From Alphaproteobacteria bacterium (GTDB lineage Bacteria; Pseudomonadota; Alphaproteobacteria; SHVV01): DNA of 64,000 bases. The notes under the pieces were generated by a model, which was not told where the DNA came from, searched no databases, and was given only the letters and a program-made list of their open reading frames with translations. Of this stretch, positions 1,737-32,145 are shown piece after piece; the stretch's first letter is position 1; each line of letters begins with the position of its first letter. The stretch spans positions 2,400,001 through 2,464,000 of the forward strand of contig OZ253470.1 in NCBI GenBank assembly GCA_965261735.1. Direction: 5' to 3'. The position numbers and the translations under genes are program-made.

Positions 1737-2368
1737 CCCTGCCCGCCCCGTTGATACGGCCCGGCGCCATCCGGGTCGATCTGCTGTTGATCGCCGACAT
1801 GATCGAGCCGGAATCGCGCGTGCTCGACATCGGTTGCGGCGACGGCACCCTGCTGCACTATCTCCAGCGCAGCAAGAGCGTCGACGGCCGCGGCATGGAT
1901 TTGAGCCAGACCGCGGTCAAGGAGTGCGTGAGCCACGGTCTTGCCGTCATCCAGGGCGACGCCGACGAGGACCTCTCGGATTACCCGGCGCAGGCCTTCG
2001 ACTGCGTCGTCCTCAGCCAGACGCTACAAGCGACGCACAATCCGCGCCGCGTAGTCGAGGAGCTCGTGCGCATCGGCCGCTACGCCATCGTCTCGCTACC
2101 CAACTTCGGCTATTGGCGGGTGCGCTGGAACCTGCTCGCGGCCGGACGCATGCCCGTGACCCGGACGCTCAATTACCACTGGTACGAGACGCCCAACATC
2201 CACATGTGCACGATCCGCGACTTCGTCATTCTGTGCCGCGACATGGGTGTCACCATCGAACAACACATCCTCGTCAACCACCGCGGTCGCGCGGGCGTGT
2301 TTCAGTCGCTCGGGGCGCTCGGCAACCTATTCGGCGAACAGAGCCTGTTTCGCCTCAGCCACCGCTAG
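1733..2368 (+). CDS. metW: Methionine biosynthesis protein MetW
   Basis: [29 protein letters not shown]; GTG start overlaps the metX stop. Confidence 0.93.
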
Positions 2369-3143
2369 CGGCGGCGGGCTCGCGGCGCCGGGGCGAACAC
2401 GAGGCGGGGGTGCCGCTGCGCCGCGCGGCCGCGGGAATCAGCACCGGCGCTCGCCGGCGCTCGGCCGGCGCGCGGTGCGCCGCCGTCAGCGCGTAAATCT
2501 GCTTGCTCGCCTCGACGACGAGAACGCCCGAGAAGACCTGGCCCCAGCGTGCGCCAATATTCTCGAACGCTGACGCGGCTCGGATCAGGGTGCGCCACCG
2601 GGTTGGCGGTAGATAGAGGGCGCGCGCGGTCAGCTCGGGCGAGAACATGGTGTCGCGCAGTAGACGGTTGAGCTGTCGCGGGCTGAACGGAAAACCGTAG
2701 CCGAACGGGGTCCGCTCGACCCGCGCCCAGATGCCGCGGCGGTTCGGCACGACAACGATGAGGCGACCGCTCGGCGAGAGCACGCGCCAGACCTCGCGCA
2801 GCATGGGCCGTACCTGCTCGCTCGTCTCGATCGCGTGAACCATGAGGATACGGTCGATCGAGCTATCCTCGAGCGGCAGCTCGGCTTCGTCACTGAGCGT
2901 CACTAGGCCGGGCTCGGCGCGCGGCCAGCGCACGACCCCTTGCGCCGCCGGCATGAGCGCAACGACGCGCTCGGCGTCGGCGAGAAACGGCAGCAGGTAG
3001 GGCGTCGCATAACCGAGACCGAGGAGCTTGAGGCCCCCCATCTGCGGCCATATCGCGCGGACACGGCGGCGGATGAGGCGGCATGCGACTTGCCCCAGGG
3101 GCGACGCATAGAATTGGCTGAAATCAACGACGTCAGGCCGCAT
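2355..3143 (-). CDS. Class I SAM-dependent methyltransferase domain protein
   Basis: MRPDVVDFSQFYASPLG, GLGYATPYL, PNRRGIWAR: conserved alphaproteobacterial Methyltransf_11-like family. Confidence 0.85.
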   Translation of the reverse strand: MRPDVVDFSQFYASPLGQVACRLIRRRVRAIWPQMGGLKLLGLGYATPYLLPFLADAERVVALMPAAQGVVRWPRAEPGLVTLSDEAELPLEDSSIDRILMVHAIETSEQVRPMLREVWRVLSPSGRLIVVVPNRRGIWARVERTPFGYGFPFSPRQLNRLLRDTMFSPELTARALYLPPTRWRTLIRAASAFENIGARWGQVFSGVLVVEASKQIYALTAAHRAPAERRRAPVLIPAAARRSGTPASCSPRRREPAAASGG

Positions 3144-3303
3144 AGCGGCAAACTCTAGCATACGCGAGCCGGCCGCGGTCACGTTGGCGGGCGGTCCCGC
3201 GCGGCGGCGGACGAGCCGGTTCGGCGCTTCGCATTGACCGCCCCGGCCGCCCGCGCCACACTAGGTGGTCACGTTTGGAACCGGCGGTCCCCGGAGGCAC
3301 TCC

Positions 3304-4473
3304 ATGTCGATCACTGCGCTGCGCACAAAGAGCAAGTTTCACCCCGATCCCGAGCAGTCCTACACGCTGCCCGGCACCTACTATTTCGACCCCGACATCT
3401 ACGAGCGCGAGCGCGAGGAGATCTTCTTCAAGACCTGGCAGTTCGCGGGCTATCTCGCCGACCTCGAGAACCCCGGCGACTTCATCACCATGGACCTCCT
3501 GGATCAGAGGATCGTGATCGTCCGAGATCGGAAGCGGCGTTTGCGCGCCTTCTACAACGTGTGCGCCCATCGCGGTCACACGCTCCTCGAGGGCAAGGGC
3601 AACAGGCGCATGATTACCTGCCCGTTCCATGCCTGGACGTACGATCTCGAGGGCAACCTCAAGGCGGCCGGCAACTCGGAGAACGTGGCCGGCTTCGATG
3701 CGGACGAATTCTGCCTCTCGGAGGTTCGCGTCGAGGAGTTCCTCCACATGGTGTTCGTCAATCTCGATACGGGCGCCGCAACGCTGGAGAGCCAGGCCGC
3801 GGGGTTGGCCAAGGAGATACGCGAAACGGTACCGAATTTCGATCAGCTCAAGTTCGCCCGCCGCGATACTTACGAGATCAAGGCCAACTGGAAGTTCATC
3901 TTCGATCAGCTCGAGTGCTATCACTGCCCGCATCTGCATCCCCAGGTCATGGGCCGCGATGATTCCTACATGGACACCAACTGGGAGTCCGTGGAGCATG
4001 GAATCTGGGCCACCCACATCGCGCGTGGCGGCCCCGACATTCTCGAAAAGATCGCGAAAAAGCTGCCCTACGACATCGGCGGCCAATCGATGGTGAAGGA
4101 TGTTTTCATCTGGTACCTGTGGCCCAACCTGTTCCTCGAGACACACCACGGCCCGAGCAACTTTAAGGTCGCGGTGGCGGGGCCGACGGGCGTCGAGGTC
4201 TCGATCCGGCATATGGACCACTTCTGCATCGACGATCCGCCCACGGCCTACAACATCGCGCAGATGGACAACCACATGCAGGTCGCCGTGCCGCAGGACC
4301 TCAAGGCCATGGAAATGCAGCAGCTCGGCGTTCACGCCCGCGGCTACACGCAGGGCCGCCTGATGGTCGACAAGGAGCGCTCGTGGCAGAGCGAGCACGG
4401 CGTCCATCATTTCGACAACCTGGTGTGGAACGCGCTCCACGGCGATAGCTACGACATCGATCCGGCGGCCTAA
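3304..4473 (+). CDS. Rieske non-heme iron oxygenase alpha subunit, CntA/YeaW-like (copy 1)
   Basis: CAHRG...CPFHAW Rieske motif; ECYHCPHLH and PQD iron ligands; SENVAGFD and GRLMVD...SEH resemble YeaW. Confidence 0.9.
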   Translation: MSITALRTKSKFHPDPEQSYTLPGTYYFDPDIYEREREEIFFKTWQFAGYLADLENPGDFITMDLLDQRIVIVRDRKRRLRAFYNVCAHRGHTLLEGKGNRRMITCPFHAWTYDLEGNLKAAGNSENVAGFDADEFCLSEVRVEEFLHMVFVNLDTGAATLESQAAGLAKEIRETVPNFDQLKFARRDTYEIKANWKFIFDQLECYHCPHLHPQVMGRDDSYMDTNWESVEHGIWATHIARGGPDILEKIAKKLPYDIGGQSMVKDVFIWYLWPNLFLETHHGPSNFKVAVAGPTGVEVSIRHMDHFCIDDPPTAYNIAQMDNHMQVAVPQDLKAMEMQQLGVHARGYTQGRLMVDKERSWQSEHGVHHFDNLVWNALHGDSYDIDPAA

Positions 4474-4537
4474 GCGCCCCGCATGCATCAGGCCTAAACG
4501 GCCCTCGCCAGGTCGAAGGGGCCAGAGGAGATAAGGC

Positions 4538-5683
4538 ATGGCCGGCGGTTCGGCGCTGAAGACCAAGAGCGGATTCCATCCCGACCCGGAGCACTCGTAC
4601 ACGCTGCCGGCGCACTACTACTACGACCGGGAGATCGAAACCCGGGAGCGCGAGGCTATCTGGTTCAAGACCTGGCAGCTGGTCGGCTACACCGCCGACC
4701 TCGGGTCCACGGGTAGCTTCATCACCGAAACCATCCTCGACCAGCCGGTGTTCGTGGTGCGCGGTAGGGACGGGGACTTGCGTGCCTACTACAACGTGTG
4801 CATGCACCGCGGGCATATCCTGCTCGAGGGCAAGGGCGACGTGCGCATGATTACCTGCCCGTTCCACGCCTGGACCTATGATCTCGAGGGCAACCTCAGG
4901 GCCGCAGGGAACTCGGAGAACGTCGCCGGGTTCGATGCGGGAGACTTCTGCCTGCCGGAGATCGGCGTCGAGGAGTTCGCGGGCATGGTGTTCGTCAACC
5001 TCGATGCGGAGGCGCCGTCGCTCGCCAGCCAGGCACCCGGGTTGGCCGAGGATTTTAGCGCTTCGGTGCCGCACTTCGATGCGCTCACCTTCGTGCGCCG
5101 CGATCCGTACACTATCGAGGCCAACTGGAAGTTCATCCCCGACCAGAACGAATGCTACCACTGCCCCAGCCTGCACCCGCAGGCGATGGGCACCAAGGAG
5201 ACCTACCTGCAGCCGAGCTGGGAGACCACCGACCACGGCATGTGGTCGAAACACGTTGTGCGCGGCAACCGCGCGGTCAAACCGGAGAATCTCCCCTACG
5301 GCTACAGTCCCGACGACGCGATCCAGGACGTCAACATCTGGTTCCTGTTTCCCAACCTGATCTTCCTCACCCACCAGGGCCCGAGCAACTTCAAGGTCAC
5401 GCGCATCATGCCGACGGGAGCCGAGACGGCGACCCAGACCATCGACAATTTCTGCCACAACGACCCGGCTACCGACATCGACATCGGCACGATGGACAAC
5501 TACCGCGACGTCGTGATTCCGCAGGACGTCCCGGCCATGGAGCAGCAACAGCTCGGCGTGCGTGCGCGCGGTTACACCCAAGGGCGCCTGATGTGCGACC
5601 GCGAGGTCTCGTGGCGCAGCGAGCACGGGACGCACTTCTTCGACAATCTGGTGTGGCGGGCGCTCAACGGCGATCGCTATTAG
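4538..5683 (+). CDS. Rieske oxygenase alpha subunit, CntA/YeaW-like (copy 2)
   Basis: CMHRG...CPFHAW; ECYHCPSLH; PQD. Confidence 0.9.
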   Translation: MAGGSALKTKSGFHPDPEHSYTLPAHYYYDREIETREREAIWFKTWQLVGYTADLGSTGSFITETILDQPVFVVRGRDGDLRAYYNVCMHRGHILLEGKGDVRMITCPFHAWTYDLEGNLRAAGNSENVAGFDAGDFCLPEIGVEEFAGMVFVNLDAEAPSLASQAPGLAEDFSASVPHFDALTFVRRDPYTIEANWKFIPDQNECYHCPSLHPQAMGTKETYLQPSWETTDHGMWSKHVVRGNRAVKPENLPYGYSPDDAIQDVNIWFLFPNLIFLTHQGPSNFKVTRIMPTGAETATQTIDNFCHNDPATDIDIGTMDNYRDVVIPQDVPAMEQQQLGVRARGYTQGRLMCDREVSWRSEHGTHFFDNLVWRALNGDRY

Positions 5684-5717
5684 TCGAGCGCGCCGGCTCG
5701 CTACTGGAGGGGAACAG

Positions 5718-6521
5718 ATGGCAGGGAAGGCAGCCAAGAGGACGGCACGCGCAAAGCGCAAGGTCGCGATCGTCACCGGCGGCGGCACCGGGCTCGGGCG
5801 CTCCTGCGCCAACGTGTTGACGCGCGAAGGTTATGCGGTCGCGATCGTCGGGCGCCGGGCAGCAAAGCTCAAGCCGAAGCGCGGCGAAACGTTGTACCCC
5901 TACGTGTGCGACGTTGCCGACCGGGCCCAGATCCGAGCCACCGTCAAGGCCGTGCTCGCCGATTTCGGGCGCCTCGACGCGCTCGTGAACGGGGCCGGCT
6001 CGGTGCGCATCAAGAAGGCGGAGAACGTTACCCAGGACGACATCGACAGCCTGATCGGCACCAACCTCGTCGGCACGATGAACTTCTGCTACGCCTGTGT
6101 GCCGGCATTGCGCAAGGCGCGCGGCACCATCGTCAACATGAGCTCCAGCATCGCCTATCGCCCGTCGGCCGAAAGCAGCATCTACGCCGCCACCAAGGGC
6201 GGCGTCGAATCTTTCACCAAGGCCCTCGCGGTCGAGCTCGCGCCGCGCGTGCGCGTCAATACGGTCAGCCCGGGGCTCGTGCGCAGCGAGGTCTATCTCG
6301 CCGCCGGCATGGACGCCAAGACTTACAAGAACCTGCTGAAGTGGGCCGGCAGCCTCTATCTTATGGGACGCGCGGGCGAGCCAGAGGACGTCGCCGAGCT
6401 CGTCGCTTTTCTCGCTTCCGACAAGGCGTCCTGGATCACCGGCCTGTGTATCCCGGTCGACGGCGGCTACAGCGTCGGCCAGACCATCGAGGTGCCGCGG
6501 ACCGAGCTCCACGGCTCGTAG
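5718..6521 (+). CDS. Short-chain dehydrogenase/reductase
   Basis: TGGGTGLG, NGAG, YAATK, VDGG; GGAGGG RBS. Confidence 0.9.
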   Translation: MAGKAAKRTARAKRKVAIVTGGGTGLGRSCANVLTREGYAVAIVGRRAAKLKPKRGETLYPYVCDVADRAQIRATVKAVLADFGRLDALVNGAGSVRIKKAENVTQDDIDSLIGTNLVGTMNFCYACVPALRKARGTIVNMSSSIAYRPSAESSIYAATKGGVESFTKALAVELAPRVRVNTVSPGLVRSEVYLAAGMDAKTYKNLLKWAGSLYLMGRAGEPEDVAELVAFLASDKASWITGLCIPVDGGYSVGQTIEVPRTELHGS

Positions 6522-6608
6522 GGCGGGCCGCAACCCGGCCCGGTTCCTCCGCGTCCGTCACCGGCGCTGTCATGGCGACGTCGGCAGGCGGCAACCAAGG
6601 AGCGTCCG

Positions 6609-7448
6609 ATCAGTAGCTACGAGGCGTACGACAAAACTGCATGCAACTATGACGCGACGCGCGGGCCAATTGGCATCGAGATCATCCTCGGCTGTCTCGC
6701 TCGCGGGATTTCGCCGCTGAACGAGCTCACCGTCCTCGACGCCGGCTGCGGCACGGGCAACTACGCCGCGCAGTTGGCGCCCAACGTCCATCGCCTCACG
6801 GGCGTCGATTTCAGCGCGGGCATGTTGGCGGTCGCCGCGGGCAAATTGGCGCCCCACATCAGCGCCGGCCGTTGCGCGCTGCATCGCGCCGACATTCTCG
6901 GGCTTCCCTTCGCGGACGGCGCCTTCCACGCCGTCACCGTCAATCAGGTGCTTCACCACCTGCCCGACGATCCCGCGGCCGGCTACCCCGTACTCAGGCG
7001 TGCGCTGCGCGAGTTCGCCCGCGTGCTCAAACCCGGCGGGAGCCTGGTCGTCAACACCTGCGACCAGCATCAGCTCAGGGAGGGGTACTGGTTCCTCGCG
7101 TTGGTGCCGGCGGCGATGGAGGCGCTCGCGGTCCGGCTCGCCCCCCTCGAGACCCTGGTTGAAATCGCCGGCGAGACCGGTTTCGGCGCCCGCGGGCGAT
7201 TCGTACCGGTCGACGCCGTTGTCCAGGGAGAGCGCTACTTCGATCCGCGCGGGCCGCTGAGCGAGGAATGGCGCGACGGCGACTCGACCTGGGCGCTGGT
7301 GCCCGAGACCGAGCTAGCGCAAGTTTGCGCGCGCCTGAGTTCATTGGATGCGGGTGGCGAGCTCGAGGCCTTTGTGCGGCGGCTCGACGCGCGGCGCCCG
7401 CAAATCGGCCAGATCACGATCCTGCATTTGGTCAAGAAGGCGACTTGA
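6609..7448 (+). CDS. Class I SAM-dependent methyltransferase (apparent ATC start)
   Basis: VLDAGCGTG lies upstream of the first canonical start (6774); AAGGAG RBS at 6597-6602 precedes an in-frame ATC at 6609; NQVLHHL, VLKPGG. Confidence 0.75.
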   Translation: MSSYEAYDKTACNYDATRGPIGIEIILGCLARGISPLNELTVLDAGCGTGNYAAQLAPNVHRLTGVDFSAGMLAVAAGKLAPHISAGRCALHRADILGLPFADGAFHAVTVNQVLHHLPDDPAAGYPVLRRALREFARVLKPGGSLVVNTCDQHQLREGYWFLALVPAAMEALAVRLAPLETLVEIAGETGFGARGRFVPVDAVVQGERYFDPRGPLSEEWRDGDSTWALVPETELAQVCARLSSLDAGGELEAFVRRLDARRPQIGQITILHLVKKAT

Positions 7449-7473
7449 GCGGGCCGGCGAGGAGGCAAGCGAC

Positions 7474-8406
7474 ATGCAGAAGCGCACGTTGGGCAAGACC
7501 GGGCTGGAGGTGTCGGCCCTCGGGTTCGGGGGTGCTCCGGTCGGTTACCTGGAGACGGATCGGCGTCAAGCCACCGAGATCCTCAATACCCTCCTCGATC
7601 GCGGCGTCAACCTGATCGACACCGCCGCGAGCTACGCGGGCTCCGAAGAGGTGATCGGCCAGGCCATCGGGCAGCGGCGCGACGAGTACGTCCTGGTCTC
7701 GAAATGTGGTCAGGCCTTCGATGACATCGAGGGCGAGGCGTGGTCGGCAGCGGCCATCGGACAGACCGTGGACCGCGCCCTTCGCCGTCTGAAGACCGAT
7801 CATCTCGACGTCATGCTGCTGCACTCGTGTGGCATCGAGACGCTGAAGACGGGTGAGGCGATCGGGGCGCTCGCGCACGCGCTCGAGGCGGGCAAGGTCC
7901 GCTACGCCGGCTATTCCGGCGATAACGAGGCCGCGGCCTACGCCGCCCAACTCGACGTCGTCTCGGTGATCGAGACCTCCGTCAGCATCTGCGACCAGGC
8001 CAACATCGATGCCGTCCTGCCGGAGACCCGGCGCAACGACATCGGCGTCTTGGCGAAGCGGCCGATTGCCAACGCGGCCTGGAAGGACCCTTCCGAGCAG
8101 CCGGGCATCTATGCCGGCTACGCACGAACCTACACCGAGCGATTGGCGAAGATGGGCATCACGCCGGAAGAGCTCGGCTTCGAGGGCGCGGGCTCCGAGG
8201 CGTGGCCCGAGCTCGCCCTGAGGTTCACGCTTTCGCACCCCGGGGTGTCGACGGCGATCGTGGGTACGACGAAGCTCGCGAGCGTCGAGGACAACATCGC
8301 CGCGGCCGCGAAGGGGCCACTATCGGTCGACGTCGTCACCGCGCTGCGGCAGGCATTTCAGCGTGCCGAGGCGGCAGCCGGCGAGAAGTGGACCGGCCAG
8401 ACCTAG
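7474..8406 (+). CDS. Aldo/keto reductase
   Basis: RTLGKTGLEVSALGFG, IDTAASY, SEEVIG, LRRLKTDHLD. Confidence 0.9.
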   Translation: MQKRTLGKTGLEVSALGFGGAPVGYLETDRRQATEILNTLLDRGVNLIDTAASYAGSEEVIGQAIGQRRDEYVLVSKCGQAFDDIEGEAWSAAAIGQTVDRALRRLKTDHLDVMLLHSCGIETLKTGEAIGALAHALEAGKVRYAGYSGDNEAAAYAAQLDVVSVIETSVSICDQANIDAVLPETRRNDIGVLAKRPIANAAWKDPSEQPGIYAGYARTYTERLAKMGITPEELGFEGAGSEAWPELALRFTLSHPGVSTAIVGTTKLASVEDNIAAAAKGPLSVDVVTALRQAFQRAEAAAGEKWTGQT

Positions 8407-8541
8407 TCCCCAATTCGGATCGGGCCGCGCGCCGTGAGTCGGCGCCCCTCGGTTGACCGGGGTTGCGGTTTGGTTCAGCATGGGGTTGTGCGGTCGTAGT
8501 GTGCCTGCCACACCTCTTTACACGATTCCGGGAGTAAGATC

Positions 8542-9684
8542 ATGGTGTCCAACCTCGCCGCCGAGCCCAAGTTCCACCCCGACCCAGAGCGCTCCTACAC
8601 GCTGCCGGGCACCTACTACTTCGACCCCGAGATCTTTGAGCGCGAGAAGGAGGAGATCTGGTTCAAGACTTGGCAGTTCATCGGCTATCGCCACGATCTT
8701 AAGGAGCCCGGCGACTACATCACGGCGACCATCATCGATCAGCCGGTGTTCGCGGTCCGGGCCAAGGACGGGCGCCTGCGGGCCTACTACAACGTGTGCA
8801 TGCACCGTGGTCACATCCTGCTCGAGGGCACGGGCAATACGCGCATGATCACCTGCCCGTTCCATGCCTGGACCTATGATTTCGAGGGCAACCTCAAGGC
8901 GGCGGGCAACTCCGAGAACGTGGCCGGCTTCGATCACGGCGACTTCTGCCTGCCCGAGATCCAGGTCGAGGAATTCGCCCACATGGTGTTCGTGAACCTC
9001 GATGCGGGGGCGCCTTCATTGGCGAGCCAGGCGGGCGATCTCGCCCAGCACTGGCAGGACAACGTGCTCAATTTCGACAAGCTCAAGCTCGCGCGCCGCG
9101 ACCCTTACGTTATCGAGGCCAACTGGAAGTTCGTCGCCGACCAGAACGAGTGCTACCACTGCCCGGTCATCCATCCCGGCGTCGCCAGCGTCGAGGGTGG
9201 GCCCGGCGCCTGGATCACCACCGAGCACGACATCTGGTCGACGCACCTGGTGCGCGCCAACGAGCAGGTCACCGCCGAGCGCGTGCAGAACCTGATCGAA
9301 CCCATCCCGCCCGACGAGCTCCAGGACGACACCCACCTCTACTTCCTGTTCCCCAACCTGATCTTCGTCACCCACTGGGGCCCGAGCAACTTCAAGGTCA
9401 TGCACTTCATGCCGAGGGGCATCGAGTCGACGCTCGAGATCGTCGACAATTTCTGCCTCAACGATCCGCCGAGCGAGGGCGACATGGCCAACATCAACCG
9501 CTTCAGCGATATCGTGCAGCCGCAGGACATCCACCCCATGGGACAACAGCAGCTCGGCGTGCACTCGCGCGGCTATACGCAAGGCCGCCTCATGGTCGAT
9601 CGCGAGCGCACCTACCGCAGCGAGCACTCCGTCCACCACTTCGACAACCTCGTGTGGACCGCGCTCAACGGCCCGAACTACTAG
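8542..9684 (+). CDS. Rieske oxygenase alpha subunit, CntA/YeaW-like (copy 3)
   Basis: CMHRG...CPFHAW; ECYHCPVIH; PQD. Confidence 0.9.
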   Translation: MVSNLAAEPKFHPDPERSYTLPGTYYFDPEIFEREKEEIWFKTWQFIGYRHDLKEPGDYITATIIDQPVFAVRAKDGRLRAYYNVCMHRGHILLEGTGNTRMITCPFHAWTYDFEGNLKAAGNSENVAGFDHGDFCLPEIQVEEFAHMVFVNLDAGAPSLASQAGDLAQHWQDNVLNFDKLKLARRDPYVIEANWKFVADQNECYHCPVIHPGVASVEGGPGAWITTEHDIWSTHLVRANEQVTAERVQNLIEPIPPDELQDDTHLYFLFPNLIFVTHWGPSNFKVMHFMPRGIESTLEIVDNFCLNDPPSEGDMANINRFSDIVQPQDIHPMGQQQLGVHSRGYTQGRLMVDRERTYRSEHSVHHFDNLVWTALNGPNY

Positions 9685-9703
9685 GCCGCCAGGGGGGAGC
9701 TCC

Positions 9704-10879
9704 ATGTCATCGAGCGCCGCGCCGCGCACCACCAACCGGTTCCACGCCGACCCCGAGCTGTCCTACACCCTGCCCGGCCGCTACTACTTCGACGCCGGGA
9801 TCTACGCGAGCGAGAAGGAGGAGATCTTCTTTAAGTCCTGGCAGTTCGCGGGCTACGTCCACGAGCTGCGCGAGCCCGGCGACTACGTCACCGCGCGCAT
9901 CGTCGACCAGCCGGTGTTCGTCGTGCGCGCCAAGGACGGAGCTTTGCGCGCCTATTACAACGCCTGCATGCACCGCGGCCACATCCTGCTCGAGGGCAGC
10001 GGCAACGTGCGCATGATCACCTGCCCGTTCCACGCCTGGACCTATGATCTCGAGGGCAACCTCAAGGCGGCGGGAAACTCGGAGAACGTCGCAGGCTTCG
10101 ACCACGGCGATTTCTGCCTGCCGGAGATCGGGGTCGAGGAGTTCGCCAACATGGTGTTCGTCAACCTCGATGCGGGCGCGCCCTCGCTCGCCAGCCAGGC
10201 CGGCGACCTGGCCGAGGACTTCCGGACCAACGTCGTCAATTTCGACCGCCTCCGCTTCGGCCGGCGCGACCCCTACAAGCTTAAGTGCAATTGGAAGTTC
10301 GTGATGGACCAGAACGAGTGCTACCACTGCCCGATCATCCATCCGCGGGTCTCCAGCGTCCAGGACGGTCCCGACAACTGGACGACCACCGAGTACGCGT
10401 TGTGGTCCAAGCATCTCATCCGCGCCAACCCGACCATCCGCGCTGAGCGCGAGCAGGCGCTGCGCGAGCCCATTCCGGCGGACGATCTCCAGCTCGACAT
10501 GTACATCTGGTTCCTGTGGCCGAATCTGGTGTTCGTCACGCAGTGGGGTCCGGCCAACTTCCGTGTCATGCACTGCATGCCCGAGGGGCCCGAGCTCACC
10601 ATCGAGAACGTCGATACCTTCGTCCTCAACGACCCGCCGAGCGGCGACGACATCGACGCCATGAACCGCTTCCGCGACGTAGTCCAGCCGCAGGACACCC
10701 TGGCCATGGAGCAGCAGCAGCTCGGCGTGCACGCACGCGGCTACTGGCAGGGCCGCCTCATGGTCGACAAGGGTCGCACCTGGCGCAGCGAGCATGCGGT
10801 CCACCACTTCGACGACATGGTGTGGAGGGCGCTGAACGGCCCCGACTACGGCCCCGATACCGCCACCGCCGCGCGCTGA
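9704..10879 (+). CDS. Rieske oxygenase alpha subunit, CntA/YeaW-like (copy 4)
   Basis: CMHRG...CPFHAW; ECYHCPIIH; PQD. Confidence 0.9.
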   Translation: MSSSAAPRTTNRFHADPELSYTLPGRYYFDAGIYASEKEEIFFKSWQFAGYVHELREPGDYVTARIVDQPVFVVRAKDGALRAYYNACMHRGHILLEGSGNVRMITCPFHAWTYDLEGNLKAAGNSENVAGFDHGDFCLPEIGVEEFANMVFVNLDAGAPSLASQAGDLAEDFRTNVVNFDRLRFGRRDPYKLKCNWKFVMDQNECYHCPIIHPRVSSVQDGPDNWTTTEYALWSKHLIRANPTIRAEREQALREPIPADDLQLDMYIWFLWPNLVFVTQWGPANFRVMHCMPEGPELTIENVDTFVLNDPPSGDDIDAMNRFRDVVQPQDTLAMEQQQLGVHARGYWQGRLMVDKGRTWRSEHAVHHFDDMVWRALNGPDYGPDTATAAR

Positions 10880-12044
10880 TGACGAGCGTCGCGCCGACGG
10901 CTCGGGAGAGCCGGTTCGGTCACGATCCCGAGCACTCCGCGACGCTGCCCGGGCATTACTACATGGACCGGACGATCTTCGAGCGCGAGAACGAGGAGAT
11001 CTGGTTCAAGACCTGGCAGTTCGTCGGCTACCTCCACGATCTCGAAGGGCCCGGCGACTACATCACGACTACTCTCCTCGACCAGCCGCTGTTCGTGGTC
11101 CGCGCCAAGGACGGCAACCTGCGCGCCTTCTACAATGTGTGCATGCACCGCGGGCATATCCTGCTCGAGGGCACGGGCCATACGCGGATGATCACCTGCC
11201 CCTTCCATGCCTGGACCTACGATCTCGAAGGCAACCTCATGGCGGCGGGAAACTCGGAGAACGTGGCCGGCTTCGATGCGGGCGAGTTTTGCCTGCCCGA
11301 GATCCAGGTCGAAGAGTTCCTGCACATAGCGTTCGTCAATCTCGATGTGGGCGCACCCTCGCTCGCGAGCCAGGCCGGCGGGCTCGAGCGCGAGATTCGC
11401 GCCACCGTGCCGCAGTTCGAGCAGCTCAAGCTCGCCCGCCACGACCCCTTCGTGCTCAAGTGCAACTGGAAGTTCATCCTCGACGGCATGGAGTGCTACC
11501 ACTGTCCCCACATCCACCCTGGCGTTTTCGACGGCAAGAAGCCCGAGCTTCGCGAGTCGATCGAGCACGACGTGTGGGCGACGCACATTTCCTACGGCGA
11601 CGGCGAGGTCACCCGACATCAGCGGGACAAGCTGCCCTACGAGTTCGACGCCGACGATGCGCTCCAGAACGTCTACATCTGGTGGCTGTGGCCCAACCTG
11701 ATCTTCGTCCCCCCCAGGGGCCGAGCAACCTCAAGGTCATGCACATTCGCGCCGACAGCGTCGAGCGCTCGTTCATGGGGATCGACAACTTCTTCGTGAA
11801 CGACCCGCCGAGCGCGGCCGAGATCGGTAGCATGAACTGGTTCCGCGATGTGATTCAGCCGCAGGATACGCGCGCCATGGAGCTCCAGCAGCTCGACATG
11901 AGCGCGCGCGGCTACAGCCAGGGCCGCCTCATGGTCGATCGCGGGCGCACCTGGCGCAGCGAGCACACCACTCACCTGTTCGACCTGCGGGTGTGGCTCG
12001 CGCTCAACGCCGAGGGCACCCAGGTCGGCGGAGGCGAGGCATGA
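10879..12044 (+). pseudogene. Rieske oxygenase alpha subunit (copy 5), -1 frameshift
   Basis: Starts at the TGATG overlap; homology switches frame in the C7 run at 11709-11715 (WPNLIFV | QGPSNLKV). Could be a sequencing error. Confidence 0.8.
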
Positions 12045-12349
12045 CGGCAAACATCGTGCGAGACAAGCGGCGTAGGTTCCACCCCGACCCGGAGCATTCG
12101 GACACGCTGCCCGGGACCTACTACTGGGACCCCGACATCTTCGCCCGCGAGAAGGAGGAGATTTTCTTCAAGACGTGGCAGTTCGTGGGCTATGTGAGCG
12201 AGCTCAGGAGCCCGGGCGATTTCGTCACCGCGACTATCATCGACCAGCCCGTCTTCGTGATCCGCGCCAAGGAAGGGGCTTTGCGCGCCTACTACAACGT
12301 GTGCATGCACCGCGGTCATATCCTGCTCGAGGGCAAGGGCAACGTGCGC
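12041..12349 (+). pseudogene. Rieske oxygenase alpha subunit (copy 6), truncated
   Basis: About 100 codons match the paralogs up to CMHRGHILLEGKGNVR; homology then stops before MITCPFH. Confidence 0.85.
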
Positions 12350-12901
12350 CGCATCGCCCATCTTGGCGGCACCGCGCAGCTGCACCGCGTGGGGCGCGCG
12401 GCTCCGAAACCCTCACCCAACGGCCGGTTCGCAAGGCCGATAGGATCGATCGCTTTCTGCCCGGTCCGCAGCGGCCCAACGATGCGCTTGCCGGCACCCG
12501 CCGCCGCGTGGGAGGCGCCAACGCCGAGCGGCCGGGTGCGCGCCCCGGTAACGTGCGCCCCACCGCGGGCGAGGCACGCGCTCGGGAATCGCTCTCCACC
12601 CAGGCGGGCCACTCGAGCGCCTTCGTCACGCAGTTCATCGCCCAGGAAGTGATCCCCGACGACGAGCGCGGGCGGCCCGGTTTTCACGATGGCGGCGTCG
12701 CCGCGTACGAGGCCACGACCTGCGCGCGCGGGTCTATTTCGGGCCTAACCAGCCGATCGAAGTCCGCGCCTGAGCCGTTCTCCTATCGCGGGCGCGCGCC
12801 TCGGCTGCTGTGCCCGAGCGGGTGTTTCATGATATGACCCCGCCGGGCGCGGGCGCGCGATGCGCAGCCGGCGCCGAGGCGCAACTTGCGGGAACACTCC
12901 C

Positions 12902-14452
12902 ATGCCCGACGCCATGACGGCGGCCGAACTTGTGGCGCGCGGCGCCGACGCCGATATCGCGATCGGCGCACCGGGGAGAGCACCGCTCACCTTCGATGGC
13001 CTGCGCCGCCTGGTCACCGCCACCGTGCGCGACCTCAACGATATGGGCCTCGGCCGCGGCGACCGCGTCGCGATCGTGCTCCCCAACGGGCCCGAGATGG
13101 CGGCCTCCTTCGTGGCCATCGCCGCCGGCGCCAGCACCGCGCCGCTCAACCCCGCCTACCGCACGGACGAGTTCGCGTTCTACCTCGAAGACCTCGCGGC
13201 GAAGGCGCTCGTGGTAAGGGCCGGCAGCCCCACGCCCGCGCGCGAGGTGGCGGTAGAGCGCGGCCTCCGCCTGATCGAGCTCGACGTCGCGGACGGCGCC
13301 CCGGCCGGGAGCTTCAGCCTCGGCGGTGCCTGCGGCGGCGGCGCGGTACCCGTCGCCCGTGGCGGCATGGCGGAGGCCGACGACGAGGCGCTAGTGCTGC
13401 ACACCTCGGGCACCACCTCGCGCCCCAAGATCGTCCCCTTGAGCCAGCGCAATATCTGCGCTTCGGCCCGCAACGTCCGCGCGACCCTGGCGCTGACGGC
13501 TGCCGACCACTGCCTCAACATCATGCCGCTGTTCCATATCCACGGCCTGATCGCGGCCACGCTGGCGAGCCTCGGCGCCGGCGCCGCGGTCACCTGCACA
13601 CCGGGTTTTAACGCGCTGCGCTTTTTCGCCTGGCTCGAAGAGGTACAGCCGACCTGGTACAGCGCTGTCCCCACCATGCACCAAGCGATCGTGGCCCGCG
13701 CCCCCCGCAACCGCGAGATCATCGCCGCGAGCGAGCTGCGCTTCATCCGCTCGTCGAGCGCCTCGCTGCCGCCGCAGGTGATGGAGGAGCTCGAGGAGAC
13801 CTTCGGCGCACCGGTGATCGAATCCTACGGCATGACCGAGGCGGCACACCAGATGACGAGCAACCCGCTGCCGCCGGTGGCGCGCAAGCCCGGCACGGTC
13901 GGCATCGCCGCCGGCCCCGAGGTGGCAGTGATGGACGCGGCCGGCGCGCTCCTCAGGCCCGGCGATGTCGGCGAAGTGGTGATCCGCGGCGACAACGTCA
14001 CCGGCGGCTACGACCATAATCCTACGGCCAACGCCGAGGCCTTCACGGAAGGCTGGTTCCGTACCGGCGACCAGGGCCGCCTCGACGGCGACGGCTATCT
14101 CACGATTACCGGCCGCCTGAAGGAGATCATCAACCGCGGCGGCGAAAAGATTTCGCCGCGCGAGGTCGACGAGGTCCTGCTCGACCATGACGCCGTCATC
14201 GAGGCCGTGACCTTCGCCGTGCCGCACGACAAGCTCGGCGAGGACGTCGTCGCCGCCGCCGTGCTGCGCGACGGCGTGCATGCGAGCGGGCGCGATCTGC
14301 GTGCCTTCGTTGCCACGCGACTTGCCGACTTCAAGGTGCCGCGCCAGGTGCTCATCCTCGATGCCCTGCCCAAGGGCGCCACCGGCAAGGTTCAGCGCAT
14401 CGGTCTCGCCGACAAGCTCGGCCTCGGCCGGGCGCGGGAACCCGCCGCTTGA
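12902..14452 (+). CDS. Acyl-CoA synthetase, oxalate--CoA ligase-like
   Basis: HTSGTTSRPK, MPLFHIHGL, YSAVPTMHQ, YGMTEAAHQMTSNPLP: AAE3/PCS60-like. Confidence 0.85.
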   Translation: MPDAMTAAELVARGADADIAIGAPGRAPLTFDGLRRLVTATVRDLNDMGLGRGDRVAIVLPNGPEMAASFVAIAAGASTAPLNPAYRTDEFAFYLEDLAAKALVVRAGSPTPAREVAVERGLRLIELDVADGAPAGSFSLGGACGGGAVPVARGGMAEADDEALVLHTSGTTSRPKIVPLSQRNICASARNVRATLALTAADHCLNIMPLFHIHGLIAATLASLGAGAAVTCTPGFNALRFFAWLEEVQPTWYSAVPTMHQAIVARAPRNREIIAASELRFIRSSSASLPPQVMEELEETFGAPVIESYGMTEAAHQMTSNPLPPVARKPGTVGIAAGPEVAVMDAAGALLRPGDVGEVVIRGDNVTGGYDHNPTANAEAFTEGWFRTGDQGRLDGDGYLTITGRLKEIINRGGEKISPREVDEVLLDHDAVIEAVTFAVPHDKLGEDVVAAAVLRDGVHASGRDLRAFVATRLADFKVPRQVLILDALPKGATGKVQRIGLADKLGLGRAREPAA

Positions 14453-20555: not shown

Positions 20556-21749
20556 ATGTCGCGCCCCCACTACCCCCCTATCCACCTGCTGCCGCGCCAA
20601 GGCGGGCGCGTACGCCGCGGCCACCCATGGGTCTACGCCAACGAGCTCAACCTCGACGCGGAAGCCAAGGCGGTCGCGCCCGGCTCGCTCGTTACGTTGT
20701 GTGCCGAAGACGGCAGCCCCGTGGGCATCGCCAGCTTCAACTGGAAGTCGTTGATCGCGGCGCGCCTCTTCACGCCGGATGCGCGCGCGGTGATCGACGC
20801 CGCGTTCTTGGCCGAGCGCCTCGAAGCGGCGCTCCGCCGGCGCGAACGGTGGTTCGATACGCCTTTCTACCGCCTCGTCCACTCCGAGGGCGACGGCCTG
20901 CCGGGGCTGATCATCGACAGGTTGGGGGATATCCTCGTCGGCCAGATCAACACGGCTGCCATGGCGGGTCTCGAAGCACCACTGCTCGCGGCCCTGGACC
21001 AGGTGCTCGATCCGCACGCCGTGGTGTGGCGCAACGATCGTGCCGTCCGCGCCCTCGAGGGGCTGGACGCGCATGTGCGCATAGCCAAGGGCGCGGTCAG
21101 CGAGGCCCCGGAGCTCGACGAAGATGGCGTGGTCTTCCCGGTCGATGTGCTCGAGGGCCAGAAGACGGGCTGGTTCTTCGACCAGCGCCCGGCGCGCGCC
21201 ATGGTGGCCCGGCTTGCGCGCGGCCGCCGCGTGCTCGACCTCTACGCCTATAGCGGTGGATTCGCGGTTCGTGCCGCGGCCGCAGGCGCCGCCGAAGTGG
21301 TCGCGATCGAGCGTTCGCAAGCGGCGCTCGCCCTGGCACAGCGGGCCCTGTCGCGCAACGCCCTCGACGGCCGCTGCGATCTGCGGCGCGGCGAGGCCTT
21401 CGCGGAAATGGGTCGTCTTGGTGCCGCCGGCGAAGGCTTCGATATCGTGATCGCCGACCCGCCCGCCTTCGTGCGCTCGCGCAAGGAATTGGGGGCCGGC
21501 CTCAAGGGCTACCGCAAGCTCGCGCGGTTGGCCGGCGCTCTGGTCGCGCCGGGCGGGCTCCTCTTTCTGGCTTCCTGCTCGCACCTCGTCGATGGCGTGG
21601 CGCTGGCCGCCGAAATCCGCCGCGGCTTGACCGCGGCGCGGCGCTCAGGCCGCATCCTGGCCAGCGGCGGCGCCGGCCCCGATCACCCTGTCCACGCGTT
21701 CCTACCCGAGACCGCCTACCTCAAGTGGCAGCTGATCGAGCTCGATTGA
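20556..21749 (+). CDS. RlmI-family SAM-dependent rRNA methyltransferase
   Basis: GHPWVYANE, SEGDGLPGL, GQKTGWFFDQR, DPPAF. Confidence 0.88.
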   Translation: MSRPHYPPIHLLPRQGGRVRRGHPWVYANELNLDAEAKAVAPGSLVTLCAEDGSPVGIASFNWKSLIAARLFTPDARAVIDAAFLAERLEAALRRRERWFDTPFYRLVHSEGDGLPGLIIDRLGDILVGQINTAAMAGLEAPLLAALDQVLDPHAVVWRNDRAVRALEGLDAHVRIAKGAVSEAPELDEDGVVFPVDVLEGQKTGWFFDQRPARAMVARLARGRRVLDLYAYSGGFAVRAAAAGAAEVVAIERSQAALALAQRALSRNALDGRCDLRRGEAFAEMGRLGAAGEGFDIVIADPPAFVRSRKELGAGLKGYRKLARLAGALVAPGGLLFLASCSHLVDGVALAAEIRRGLTAARRSGRILASGGAGPDHPVHAFLPETAYLKWQLIELD

Positions 21750-22676
21750 TCGAGCCCATCGGCCGACGGGGGCGACGACGCATCCGGCGGGTAGCATCCC
21801 GCCGCTCACGAAGCCTTAACGACACTGTGCCACATTGCCCGGGCCGCACCCCAAGGAGGCGTGGATTCCGGTTCCTCGGGATCCGGGGAGCTCCACCACA
21901 AGGTCGCCAGGAGGCCAGCACGATGGCGATGGAGAAGAACGCCACTAGCGCCCGCCGCGCGCCGCGAGAGGTTGCGGAGGAAGGCGCGGTTTTGGCACAG
22001 GCCGTTGTCGACAACCTCGTCGATGGCGTGATCGTCATCGACTCGCGCGGCACCGTCGAGACCTTCAATCCCGCGGCCACTCGGATGTTCGGCTACGCCG
22101 CCGCCGAGGTCGTCGGTCACAACGTCAAAAAGTTGATGCCCGAGCCCACCCGCGAGGAGCACGACGGCAACATCGGCAATTACCTGAAGACCGGCAAGGC
22201 GAAGATCATCGGCATCGGGCGCGAAGTAACGGCGCTGCACAAGGACGGCATCCATTTCCCGATCGACCTGACGATCACCGAGATGACCATCGCCGACCAG
22301 CCGAAGTTCGTCGGCATCACGCGCGACCTCACGGAACACAAGCAGGCGGCCGCGTTGATCGCGGAACAAAGCCGCGCTCTCCTCGAATTGTCGACCCCGG
22401 TCATCAGCGTATGGGATGAGATCGTGCTGCTGCCGATCATCGGCGTCATCGACAGCGGGCGTGCCCAGCAGATCATCGAGAATCTCCTCGGCAGCATCGT
22501 CCGCACCGAATCCCGCGTCGCCATCATCGACGTCACCGGCGTGCCCGTTATCGATACCATGGTGGCACACCACCTGTTGAAGACGGTCGCCGCGGCAAAG
22601 ATGCTCGGAACTCAAGTTGTTCTCGCCGGAATCAGCCCGGAGATCGCACAAACTCTCGTTAAGCTAAGGATCGACC

Positions 22677-23781
22677 CTTGCATATCCGGTTAACACCCAT
22701 GACCGCTACATGTAGGGTGCCGCCACTCTCCCGAGTAAAGCTCGGCATAGGTTGGAGCAGAGGTGTCGCCCGCGATGCCGAGCAATGAGCGGAAGGCGTT
22801 GAACGGGTAGAACCGCCTGTTGAAGCGGAAGGTGAACTCGTTGAGGTAGGCTTGTAGGTGCTGGTGGCTAACGCCGTGGTGGATACCGATCAGCCACGTC
22901 TTCAGGTTGGCGAAAACCAGATGGATGATCGGCAGGTATTGCTCGGCAACCTCTGGATCACCACACTCGGCAACAGCGAAGTGCTCATAGCCGCGCTTAC
23001 CGAGGCCAGCATAGCCGCTCCAATCGTCAGTAACGATCAGCGATCGCGGTGCGACGGTGCTCTCGACGAACCCACAGAGCGACTCGGCGCTACGGTCGAG
23101 CACGACGGCGAGCCGAACGCGTCCGGCATAGCGTCCGTCTTTCCGGTTGTCGAGCTTGGTGCCCGGCTTTCGATGACGCACCTCGATGGCACAGGAGACG
23201 GGAACCTTGTGGTGAACACCACGGCCTTCCCCACGCGTTCGCCCGCCAACCCAGGTTTCGTCCACCTCAACATGGTTCTTGGGCTGTCCACCGATCCTGT
23301 CTTGGTTGGGCCGCACCATGCCCGAGCGGAGCTTGTGGAGAATTTGAAAGGCCGTCTCGTAGCGCGAAAGACCAAGTTGCCGCTGAAACTGCACGGCGGA
23401 CATGCCGGGCGTCTGACTGGCGACCAGATAAGCGGCCCAGAACCAGACGTTCAGCGGAGTGTGGCTACGCTCCATCACTGTTCCCACCGTCAGCCCGGTG
23501 TTCTGGCGGCACTTGCGGCAGCGCAGGACGCCAGGGCGGTTTTCAAAGTGGAACGGCTCTCCCGCCGTGCCGCAGTGCGGGCAGGCAAAGCCGTCTCCCC
23601 AGCGGGCTTTCTCCAGGTAGGCGGCGCAGGCCGCATCATCGGGGAAAAGTCGCTGGAACTCGGGTAGCGAATGCGGGAATGGGAGATCGGCGCGGTCGAG
23701 AACATCCATGGCGCGCTCCCCTATATCCGGGTTGCGCCCATTCTAGCCCTAGTGGGTGTGGGTGTAAACCGGATAGGCAAG
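22677..23781 (-). mobile_element. IS1595-family insertion sequence, copy 1 (1105 bp)
   Basis: About 22-bp TIRs CTTGCMTATCCGGTTWACACCC; 8-bp TSD GATCGACC at 22669-22676 and 23782-23789. Confidence 0.95.
22690..23709 (-). CDS. IS1595-family transposase
   Basis: Zn ribbon CPHC/CRKC, VEVDETWVGG, VTDDW.GY, YLNEFTFRFNRR. Confidence 0.95.
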   Translation of the reverse strand: MDVLDRADLPFPHSLPEFQRLFPDDAACAAYLEKARWGDGFACPHCGTAGEPFHFENRPGVLRCRKCRQNTGLTVGTVMERSHTPLNVWFWAAYLVASQTPGMSAVQFQRQLGLSRYETAFQILHKLRSGMVRPNQDRIGGQPKNHVEVDETWVGGRTRGEGRGVHHKVPVSCAIEVRHRKPGTKLDNRKDGRYAGRVRLAVVLDRSAESLCGFVESTVAPRSLIVTDDWSGYAGLGKRGYEHFAVAECGDPEVAEQYLPIIHLVFANLKTWLIGIHHGVSHQHLQAYLNEFTFRFNRRFYPFNAFRSLLGIAGDTSAPTYAELYSGEWRHPTCSGHGC

Positions 23782-23880
23782 GATCGACCTATCAGCCGTG
23801 CACTGTGCGGGATCGCTCCGCGCCGCCATGGCCGAGGCTTTGCGTGCCGTGGGTCACAAACTCAGCACCGAGGCCGCGCC

Positions 23881-24234
23881 GTGAAGGTTCCGATACTGAA
23901 GCTCGGTGACATCCTGCTGACCTCGATTCAGGTCGAACTTACCGACCAGGAGGCGCTCGAGTTTCAGGCCTACGTCACGCAAACCATCAGCAGGACCGGC
24001 GCCCGCGGCTTGGTGATCGATATCACGGCCCTCGACGTGGTCGACTCCTACCTCGCGCGCGTCCTCAACGATACCGCCAACATGGCCCAGCTTCTCGGGG
24101 CCAAGGCCGTACTCTGCGGCATGCAGCCGCTCGTTGCGCTGGCCCTCGTCGAAATGGGACGTGAGCTGATCGGCGTCGATACCGCGCTTCACCTCGACCA
24201 GGCCATGACCACGCTGCGGCAACAGCTCGGTTGA
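23881..24234 (+). CDS. rsbS: RsbS-like STAS antagonist
   Basis: VPILKL, IDITALDVVDS (phosphorylatable Ser), GMQP.VA; GTGA overlap with rsbR. Confidence 0.88.
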   Translation: MKVPILKLGDILLTSIQVELTDQEALEFQAYVTQTISRTGARGLVIDITALDVVDSYLARVLNDTANMAQLLGAKAVLCGMQPLVALALVEMGRELIGVDTALHLDQAMTTLRQQLG

Positions 24235-24257
24235 GCGCGCCCGTGCAGACACTCGCC

Positions 24258-24693
24258 ATGGGCAAGACGACGACTCTCCCCATAATCAAGGACGCGGACG
24301 TGATCCTCGCGCGCGCCGCCGGACGCGAGATCGCCCGCGATCTCGGCTTTAGCGCCGCAGATCAGACGCGGCTCGCGACAGCCATCTCCGAGCTCACGCG
24401 CAACGTTCTGTGCCACGCCGGCACGGGCGAGTGCAGCATCACCGATGACTCCGATTTCCACCTCGCCGTGGTCGGTGTGGTGGTCGACGATACCGGGCCA
24501 GGCATCCCCGACGTCGACCTTGCGATGCAGGACGGCTTCTCCACCGGCGGCAGCCTCGGGTGGCGGGCTACCCGGAACAAGGAGGCTCGTGCACGACTTC
24601 TCGATCGAGAGCAGTCCTGACGGTACGAGGGTCGCGATCGCCATGGTCCGGCGCAAGACCGAAGCACCACCGCCGGCAGTTGCGTACGCTTAG
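24258..24693 (+). pseudogene. rsbT: RsbT-like Ser/Thr kinase, +1 frameshift
   Basis: DQTRLATAISELTRN, DTGPGI, DGFSTGGSLG; an extra G at 24558-24560 precedes GLPGTRRLVHDFSIES. Could be a sequencing error. Confidence 0.8.
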
Positions 24694-24722
24694 CGCAGGC
24701 GGCCCACCCATGCGAGCTAGCC

Positions 24723-31968: not shown

Positions 31969-32028
31969 TCACCATCGGAAGGCGACGAATGGAGGTATGA
32001 GTCCCCGTGCCGCTTGCGCGCGCGTCAT
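31969..32028 (-). promoter_or_regulatory. Possible trp leader peptide (MTRAQAARGLIPPFVAFRW*)
   Basis: Short ORF ending in a Trp codon about 110 nt upstream of trpE(G), followed by a GC hairpin at about 31886-31904. Only one Trp codon. Confidence 0.3.
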
Positions 32029-32113
32029 AATGGCGCGGACGCTACCAGCATCGCGCCCCAGCGTCCAGCGGGGGCCCGTGAAGGCGCCAACTCGTGAGCC
32101 TCGCCATGCGAAG

Positions 32114-32145
32114 CGCCTGGCCTCACTCCCGCCTGGCCTCACTCC
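32114..32145. repeat. Perfect 16-bp tandem duplication
   Basis: CGCCTGGCCTCACTCC x2. Confidence 0.9.

Follow-up and report, generated by a model that had tools for sequence, protein, structure and literature searches.

The oxygenase array

The window, a 64-kb stretch of alphaproteobacterial DNA, carries a group of genes for Rieske oxygenases related to the carnitine mono-oxygenase CntA/YeaW. Six frames with Rieske and Ring_hydroxyl_A similarity (Pfam) lie on the + strand at 3304-12349 and are called R1 to R6 here in order of position. A preliminary description had listed them as six same-strand paralogs in tandem within 9 kb. The six frames are present, but just four of the genes are intact: the array consists of the intact copies R1-R4, a frameshifted R5 and a stub, R6. 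It is also not contiguous, since three unrelated genes for a short-chain dehydrogenase/reductase (SDR), a methyltransferase and an aldo/keto reductase lie between R2 and R3. Pairwise identity among R1-R4 is 56-72%.

R1 (3304..4473, +) encodes an intact CntA-like Rieske oxygenase alpha subunit of 389 aa, with matches to Pfam Rieske and Ring_hydroxyl_A; an alternative upstream start, GTG at 3265, is possible. Its iron-site motif is FDQL-ECYHC, without an aromatic residue at position -2 relative to the bridging Glu. R2 (4538..5683, +), assigned by Pfam, is an intact CntA-like oxygenase of 381 aa. It shares 69% identity with another copy in the same genome (C1:4061219) and has orthologues in loci L009 and L012 of other metagenome-assembled genomes (MAGs). 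R3 (8542..9684, +) encodes an intact CntA-like oxygenase of 380 aa, identified by phmmer against the PDB and by an AlphaFold2 (AF2) model. R4 (9704..10879, +) is also intact, is 391 aa long and is 72% identical to R3. The stop of R4 overlaps the start of R5 in TGATG (10877-10881), and R5 overlaps R6 in ATGA (12041-12044), so both of the coupling overlaps attributed to the last three frames are there.

R5 (10879..12044, +) changes frame at a run of seven C (11709-11715). The gene is read in frame 1 to about 11715 and in frame 0 from about 11712. Apart from this break both halves are open, the catalytic motifs are kept, and the C-terminal third is conserved in the other frame to 12044. R6 (12041..about 12349, +) is the 5' stub of a further copy, with 103 codons and 77% identity to R3 over 92 residues. 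Of the Rieske cluster it lacks the second Cys/His pair, and it has no catalytic domain at all. The break in R6 is followed by a unique non-coding stretch (12350..12859). It occurs nowhere else in the genome or the fetched loci, and the two minus-strand open reading frames (ORFs) tested in it have no Pfam match. A scan of 2300-13200 for promoters and terminators gave 0 promoter-like sites against 1.3 expected, and 2 terminator-like sites against 5.1 expected.

The array stretch is present in sequencing runs from 10 studies. Logan contigs of four runs from four studies were aligned to the array region, and all 340-base bins were covered. In each of the four runs a single 1060-base contig covers 11252-12311 without a gap and with 0-3 letters that differ, which shows the C7 run and the R5/R6 junction to be genuine and shared by several populations. 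The C7 run is unchanged in all of these contigs, with no indel listed there. The R6 break is bridged in two runs by contigs that span 12320-13200. The interval 4869-8667 (R2, the three inserted genes and the spacer before R3) is a single 3799-base contig in three runs and is covered by two overlapping contigs in the fourth. Misassembly had been raised as a concern, and these contigs answer it for the C7 run, the R5/R6 junction and the R6 break. The order of all six copies, which is not independently bridged, comes from the single-contig genome because the conserved paralogue blocks interrupt the Logan contigs. In two of the four runs the contigs have one extra C behind 12721 in the non-coding stretch 3' of the R6 stub, which is a population polymorphism. 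In two metatranscriptome runs, 7-8% of the sampled words of the stretch are present.

Family membership of the copies

R1-R4 score above the cut-offs for both PF00355 and PF00848 and have invariant ligands. R5 matches both families though it is frameshifted, and R6 has the first Cys/His pair only. No gene for a beta subunit (Ring_hydroxyl_B) occurs within the window. The best match of R3 in the PDB is CntA (6y8j; E 3.3e-65, residues 10-371), and the next matches cover the Rieske domain only. The AF2 model of R3 has a predicted local distance difference test score (pLDDT) of 87.3 and a predicted template modelling score (pTM) of 0.89. In Foldseek the CntA chains match this model best (TM 0.83/0.88), followed by stachydrine demethylase and 3n0q (TM 0.74). 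The Rieske ligands, His208, His213, Asp323, the bridging Glu205 and the Cys206/Cys209 pair (CntA numbering) are all conserved, and the E, C, H, C, H and D of the iron-site motif are present in 19 of 19 copies from the host genome. Oxygenases of the same genome that serve as an outgroup, which R4 matches over the Rieske domain only, have a bridging Asp, not Glu, and the normal NWK-x7 spacing.

The copies combine the bridging Glu, the Cys pair of E-C-Y-H-C and the 2-His-1-carboxylate ligands, which places them in group V. The first two features are marks of the group V quaternary-ammonium oxygenases (PMC7948474 and PMC10952381, both in excerpt). CntA, choline monooxygenase, OxyBAC, GbcA and Stc2 all act on quaternary ammonium compounds (PMC7948474, in excerpt). 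The copies fall in neither of the known subgroups. They lack the mark of group Va (CntA, choline monooxygenase, OxyBAC), as R1-R5 are without Tyr/Phe at CntA position 203 in a sequence alignment, as distinct from superposed coordinates. They are not group Vb either: the five copies with a catalytic domain score 131-149 bits against the GbcA model NF058607 (NCBIfam), which has a cut-off of 670, and match its N-terminal half only. The R6 stub scores 66 bits, and no match in the host genome exceeds the cut-off (best 160 bits). The Rieske domains of the copies match the GbcA model at 1e-38 to 1e-43. The Asn of R2-R4 is at -1, not -2, relative to the bridging Glu. Group Vb (GbcA/BmoA, and Stc2 with structure 3VCA) resembles the copies in its superfamily, in having no aromatic residue at 203 and in an Asn that lies nearby in many copies, but it is more distant from them than CntA is, in both sequence and fold.

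The nearest characterised enzymes are the group Va proteins CntA from Acinetobacter baumannii (6Y8J/6Y9D) and YeaW from E. coli, a type of oxygenase that is a head-to-tail alpha3 trimer with no beta subunit and converts carnitine into trimethylamine and malic semialdehyde. The likeness lies in the alpha-only composition, the length of ~380 aa, the same metal ligands and a partner in the genome that is a YeaX-like reductase, which combines a ferredoxin-NADP reductase (FNR) module with a [2Fe-2S] domain. The initial label of CntA/YeaW-type is appropriate in that the proteins are alpha-only, have CntA as their nearest solved relative and keep E-C-Y-H-C. It does not extend to orthology. YeaW groups in another clade, its identity is about equal across all 19 copies (33-38%), and no reductase gene is adjacent. 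In E. coli yeaX directly follows yeaW, whereas here the reductase gene is 2.3 Mb off and a single one is set against 19 oxygenases. The copies also differ from CntA/YeaW in the deletion of Tyr203 and the replacement of Tyr295, Asn270 and Phe319, and neither transporter genes nor genes for the malic-semialdehyde pathway were found next to the array. In public databases the proteins are annotated as 'choline monooxygenase', 'carnitine monooxygenase subunit' or generic ring-hydroxylating dioxygenase; the labels are generic or automatic.

Loss of Tyr203 and the altered pocket

In CntA, Tyr203 makes a cation-pi contact to the trimethylammonium group of the substrate, and the residue at this position separates clade Va (aromatic) from the demethylating clade Vb (Asn) (PMC7948474, in excerpt). 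In R1-R5 the segment before the bridging Glu is one residue shorter (NWK-x6-E vs NWK-x7-E) and the Tyr column is a gap, so that the motif becomes D-[QG]-x-E-C-Y-H-C. The same change is found in the expanded clade to which the copies belong. In a quick IQ-TREE phylogeny of 94 rows, with support from the Shimodaira-Hasegawa-like approximate likelihood-ratio test (SH-aLRT) only, 50 of the 51 rows of this clade have NWK-x6-E and no aromatic residue, and the remaining row reads DQNN, with Asn at 203. All of the other pattern-matched rows (23/23) have Tyr/Phe at -2, including two copies from the host genome that are basal to the expansion. A further 20 rows are outside the motif pattern, and the 14 of these that were re-examined belong to the Asp-bridged outgroup or to divergent clades. 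Among the best 120 homologues in a collection of 5.8 billion proteins, 114 have the short form, 2 read DNY, 1 reads DQNN and 3 are outside the pattern.

The carnitine pocket of CntA is shaped by Tyr225, Asn270, Tyr295, Phe258, Tyr315 and Phe319 (PMC7948474, in excerpt), and these residues are not retained as a set across the copies. In the alignment of the copies from the host genome, Tyr295 is replaced by V/I/M/L, Phe319 by V/A/L/T/G/I and Asn270 by V/L/I/E/A/Q/S/T/M; at all three positions the new residues are mostly aliphatic and vary between copies. Phe258 is variable, whereas Tyr315 is retained as F/Y/W/H. The column of Tyr225 is uncertain and reads W, F or A depending on the aligner.

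Since the cation-pi Tyr and the polar carnitine anchors are lost, carnitine-type trimethylammonium substrates are improbable. The substrates are probably other than carnitine-type trimethylammonium compounds, to judge from the aligned pocket. The ancestor, on the other hand, was probably a quaternary-amine enzyme, because the two basal copies of the host genome and all of the sister clades keep Tyr/Phe203.

Constant Rieske module and variable catalytic region

Two blocks had been singled out as near-invariant despite synonymous changes, and both remain the most conserved in the 19 full-length copies: RMITCPFHAWTYD(L/F)EGNLxAAGNSENVAGFD and the C-terminal QQL..RGYxQGRLM.D..SEH. Averaged over columns, conservation is 0.85-0.90 at R3 residues ~72-131 and 0.79 at ~342-371, and falls to 0.45-0.60 at ~222-341, between the iron ligands. 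Among R1-R4 the proportion of synonymous differences (pS) in the Rieske block is ordinary (0.28-0.47), and the ratio of nonsynonymous to synonymous rates (dN/dS) is 0.04-0.19. Because the synonymous difference is ordinary and dN/dS is low, the block is kept by purifying selection, not by gene conversion. In residues 211-330 dN/dS is 0.57-1.63 and exceeds 1 in two of the six pairs. The picture of a constant Rieske module joined to a diversified pocket is borne out by this difference between domains. Positive selection in the variable region was considered but is not accepted, as dS is unreliable, being compressed by codon bias at a third-position GC content (GC3) near 0.88. The segment between ECYHC and the PNL motif and the pocket region had been said to differ strongly in sequence and length; the sequence is divergent, but the length differs by only 2-3 residues among the window copies.

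Expansion in the genome and the family

The host genome is 5.03 Mb in a single contig and is 98% complete. It has 61 Rieske-alpha matches, of which 19 are full-length CntA-like copies with at least 48% identity to R4. About 8 further fragments are present, several of them adjoining transposase genes. The seven other genomes of the family all have matches (25, 23, 18, 17, 8, 7 and 1), and the sister genomes carry tandem runs of up to seven or eight copies. In other families of the class, 3 of 33 genomes have any match, with 1-2 each. The related loci are from MAGs of uncultured Alphaproteobacteria, several of which bear lake names. No description of this expansion or of a CntA-like clade without Tyr203 was found in the literature covered, with subscription journals outside that coverage.

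The expanded clade of 51 rows has a support of 99* and holds all of the Tyr-less copies. E. coli YeaW groups outside it with Bacillota and Rhodobacterales sequences. The copies therefore form one clade apart from YeaW, yet those in the window come from several old sub-lineages and not from one local group. R1, R2 and R3/R4 fall into three separate starred sub-clades, all of which include orthologues from other MAGs; those of R1 are in L017, L008 and L002 (support 99*). R5 joins a fourth group weakly (support 81). The paralogues are therefore old, as other genera contain orthologues of R1, of R2 and of R3/R4. The tree indicates that the array did not arise from recent local amplification, except possibly for the R3/R4 pair. 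The flanking genes of the window have no synteny with the fetched loci of other genera.

Two further regions of the host genome, C1:4630001-4668000 (L072, L073) and C1:1135001-1155000 (L062), contain intact CntA-like copies, fragments, other Rieske oxygenases and transposase genes of the IS630 type (DDE_3) and the Mutator type. They have the appearance of hot spots at which copies of the CntA-like family are gained and decay. A tblastn search of the host genome (E<=1e-15) also found ~20 two-domain glyoxalase-fold genes, ~20 genes for HsaD/PcaD-like alpha/beta hydrolases, ~21 amidohydrolase_2 genes and ~25 SDR genes of one type. The whole catabolic repertoire is multiplied in this genome, not the Rieske family alone.

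The single reductase

There is no reductase gene within the window. A single YeaX homologue, 39% identical, is encoded in the genome; the match is at C1:4727710-4728633 and the gene at C1:4727671-4728630 (L074:7632-8633). The genome has only two proteins with Fer2 and NAD_binding_1, of which the second is of the BenC type (C1:2511801-2512838; L075:7801-8838). Neither gene adjoins an oxygenase gene. The YeaX-like gene follows an ABC-transporter/amidohydrolase cluster and is beside RidA and ClpX/Lon, and the BenC-type gene follows FtsK. The YeaX-like gene is single-copy in seven of eight family genomes and is missing from one that is 63% complete; it is thus characteristic of this family to have many oxygenases and a single such reductase. 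These counts fit the earlier proposal of a shared reductase, and from them we infer that the YeaX-like protein serves the oxygenases.

Sharing of this kind has a precedent in sphingomonads, where several oxygenases are served by one electron-transfer chain. As here, many terminal oxygenase genes, scattered or clustered, are accompanied by few reductase genes, which implies a shared electron supply. The sphingomonad enzymes, however, are alpha/beta three-component ring-hydroxylating dioxygenases for aromatic pollutants, whereas those described here are alpha-only, CntA-like and two-component with a reductase of the phthalate dioxygenase reductase (PDR) type, and come from an uncultured lake lineage.

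Mutagenesis of YeaW led to the proposal that Arg83, Lys104 and Lys117 form the docking surface for the reductase (PMC9508527, in excerpt). By alignment the Rieske block holds the equivalents of all three, with the positive charge kept at Arg83 and Lys104 and an Asp in place of Lys117. Co-variation of the docking residues was considered, as YeaX Arg271 is Glu in the reductase of the host and YeaW Lys117 is Asp in the oxygenases. Since both positions become acidic, the change is not compensatory.

Neighbouring genes

The SDR gene (5718..6521, +; Pfam adh_short_C2, 2.6e-55) directly follows R2. SDR paralogues with 57-58% identity are also found directly 3' of C1:4061219 and of the R2 orthologue in L009. 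The R2-type oxygenase and the SDR, paired in all three places, are a conserved module of two genes. The next gene (about 6609..7448, +) encodes an S-adenosylmethionine (SAM)-dependent methyltransferase (Pfam Methyltransf_11, 5.6e-23). In the interval 6522-6773 it has no ATG, GTG or TTG upstream of the SAM-binding motif, and an ATG at 6572 is out of frame. A perfect AAGGAG is located six bases 5' of an ATC at 6609, which is the likely start. Either a rare start codon is in use or the start is damaged. The third inserted gene encodes an aldo/keto reductase (7474..8406, +; Pfam Aldo_ket_red, 7.6e-37).

The R1 orthologues in L017 and L002 are in same-strand clusters with amidohydrolase_2, a two-domain glyoxalase-fold protein and RidA upstream; the cluster of L017 alone has two alpha/beta hydrolases as well. 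A meta-cleavage pathway was considered on the basis of these neighbours, but it is weakened by a control for copy number and is a lead only. The neighbour proteins score far under the cut-offs of the NCBIfam models for catechol 2,3-dioxygenase/HpaD and HsaD/BphD. Within 5 kb of the CntA-like copies of the host genome, only SDR genes (4/25) and alpha/beta hydrolase genes (3/19-21) are above expectation, with the query itself included in the count.

Other features in the window

Three 351-codon ORFs, at 22690-23742 (-), 53794-54846 (+) and 62245-63297 (-), have a lower GC3 than their neighbours and are assigned to IS1595-type transposases, the first by Pfam and the other two from their equal length and near-identical GC content by codon position. 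The copy at 22690-23742 separates the PAS/STAS gene from the STAS gene in a partner-switching module (21254-26584), which comprises PAS-STAS, STAS, SpoIIE phosphatase and RsbU_N-PAS-GGDEF genes and ends in a diguanylate cyclase. A P-type cation ATPase (35275-38031, -) consists of two adjacent same-frame ORFs with an in-frame stop at about 36853, and is probably a pseudogene. A pyridine-nucleotide disulphide oxidoreductase (31972-33557, -) is apparently split over two overlapping frames. It adjoins a short N-terminal fragment of an AMP-binding enzyme (33580-34134, +).

Interpretation

The reading that best accounts for these results, with a probability of roughly 0.6, is that alpha-only Rieske mono-oxygenases branching beside CntA/YeaW have radiated in this lineage and that the locus is one of their clusters. 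The enzymes would act as a battery for many substrates, probably not betaines, with one shared reductase. Each intact copy would form an alpha3 oxygenase. Electrons from NAD(P)H would pass through the single reductase and enter at the invariant Rieske-side surface. Each copy would then hydroxylate or oxidatively dealkylate its own small-molecule substrate, which would make the set a substrate-diversified catabolic battery. The substrates may be compounds from the breakdown of dissolved organic matter that are neutral, hydrophobic or bear an amine, although this is a lean rather than an assignment. The SDR may oxidise the hydroxylated product of the R2-type enzyme. R5 and R6 would be copies lost to the turnover that is still under way in this genome, which has many insertion sequences (IS).

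Several points weigh against this reading. The pocket was mapped by sequence alignment, and HMMER and MAFFT differ by one residue near Tyr225, Phe258 and Asn270. About 40 of 150 representatives at 50% identity have the ECYHC core and no aromatic residue at -2 but no deletion; because of these, the position-203 rule of 2020 is not universal and is less diagnostic than the paper implies. The residue preceding the bridging Glu is Asn in many copies (DQN-E) and could mimic the Asn of clade Vb. By analogy with the close relatives that have been characterised, all of which are quaternary-ammonium enzymes, a quaternary or N-methyl substrate may be bound in another way. The lean towards neutral or aromatic substrates draws in part on neighbours (extradiol-dioxygenase-like, alpha/beta hydrolase, amidohydrolase_2 and RidA), but these families have ~20 copies each and are not enriched near the CntA-like copies: 1 of 20 glyoxalase-fold genes and 1 of 21 amidohydrolase_2 genes lie within 5 kb of such a copy in the host genome, vs 3.7% expected. 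In addition, the BenC-type reductase or separate ferredoxins could supply the electrons instead.

The alternative that survives best, though it is unlikely, is the one put forward in the preliminary description. Here the array is a battery of quaternary-amine or betaine oxygenases that would cleave C-N bonds or N-demethylate carnitine-like compounds, stachydrine, trigonelline and the like, and would feed the sarcosine/dimethylglycine genes at 44.7-62.2 kb. CntA as the nearest solved structure, the retained group V Cys pair (PMC10952381, in excerpt), the Tyr/Phe203 of the basal copies and sister clades and the Asn next to the bridging Glu all agree with such a function. The window also encodes SoxA, SoxB, SoxG, a DAO + GCV_T dehydrogenase, a GCV_T protein, TauD, an aldehyde dehydrogenase and a BKACE enzyme. 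The pocket argues in the other direction: the carnitine anchors are replaced, and each of the five window copies long enough to include position 203 has lost the Tyr. No copy reaches the GbcA cut-off, and no betaine transporter of the BCCT or OpuA type was seen next to the annotated CntA-like copies. No gene like a flavin-containing mono-oxygenase (FMO; Pfam PF00743, the family of the trimethylamine (TMA) monooxygenase Tmm) was found in the 98%-complete genome. The genes that the array was supposed to feed, which resemble those for sarcosine oxidase and dimethylglycine dehydrogenase, do exist but are unlinked to it: they are more than 30 kb off with ~20 unrelated genes between, and the sox cluster is on the other strand. 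Because of this distance, a connection between the two is metabolic speculation.

It is much less probable that the array is a functionless remnant on its way out of an IS-ridden genome, with the intact frames not yet hit. Two of the six copies are dead, the genome has the ~8 further fragments, and the window contains three IS1595 copies, the P-type ATPase with its in-frame stop and other split genes, all of which would suit decay. R1-R4 nevertheless keep every metal ligand and have a Rieske-domain dN/dS of 0.04-0.40. The same sequence recurs with few substitutions in contigs of four studies, and orthologues are retained in other genera. Least plausible of all is a recent tandem expansion of redundant copies for one substrate, selected for more enzyme, since the copies, although adjacent, on one strand, translationally coupled and identical in catalytic residues, have a dS of 0.55-0.75 at only 56-72% identity, differ in their pocket positions and, for R1, R2 and R3/R4, are closer to orthologues in other genera than to their neighbours in the array.

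Implications

The preferred reading, a lineage-specific radiation with a shared reductase, can be extended to a more tentative proposal, which we hold to be possible but somewhat short of an even chance. A daughter clade of group V would have dropped the cation-pi Tyr and exchanged quaternary amines for other substrates of a neutral, aromatic or amine type. It would then have radiated to ~20 paralogues per genome in an uncultured deep-lake family on one unlinked YeaX-type reductase that docks at the Rieske block. Such a clade would be an undescribed subgroup, 'Vc'. Because the clade is without the substrate-recognition Tyr and is yet labelled as choline or carnitine monooxygenase, surveys of TMA production that count CntA homologues could miscount it.

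The one-reductase, many-oxygenase layout predicts that the invariant Rieske-side block is the docking surface. If the substrates are distinct, the family offers ~20 natural pocket variants on a constant electron-entry scaffold with a single reductase, which would be convenient for studying how the specificity of Rieske oxygenases evolves.

A comparable case is known from SAR202 bacteria, which belong to another phylum and in which the expanded enzyme families are reportedly different ones. Paralogue expansions of oxidative enzymes occur in that group, and the likeness lies in the lineage-wide multiplication of one oxidative enzyme family, read there as a toolkit for diverse dissolved organic molecules, with no mention of CntA-like Rieske enzymes (PMC6946804, in excerpt). 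If the proposal of a subgroup 'Vc' is true, the radiation would be a freshwater counterpart of the paralogue toolkits proposed for marine degraders of dissolved organic matter. Distinct substrates would also provide a clue to the diet of an abundant uncultured lake lineage.

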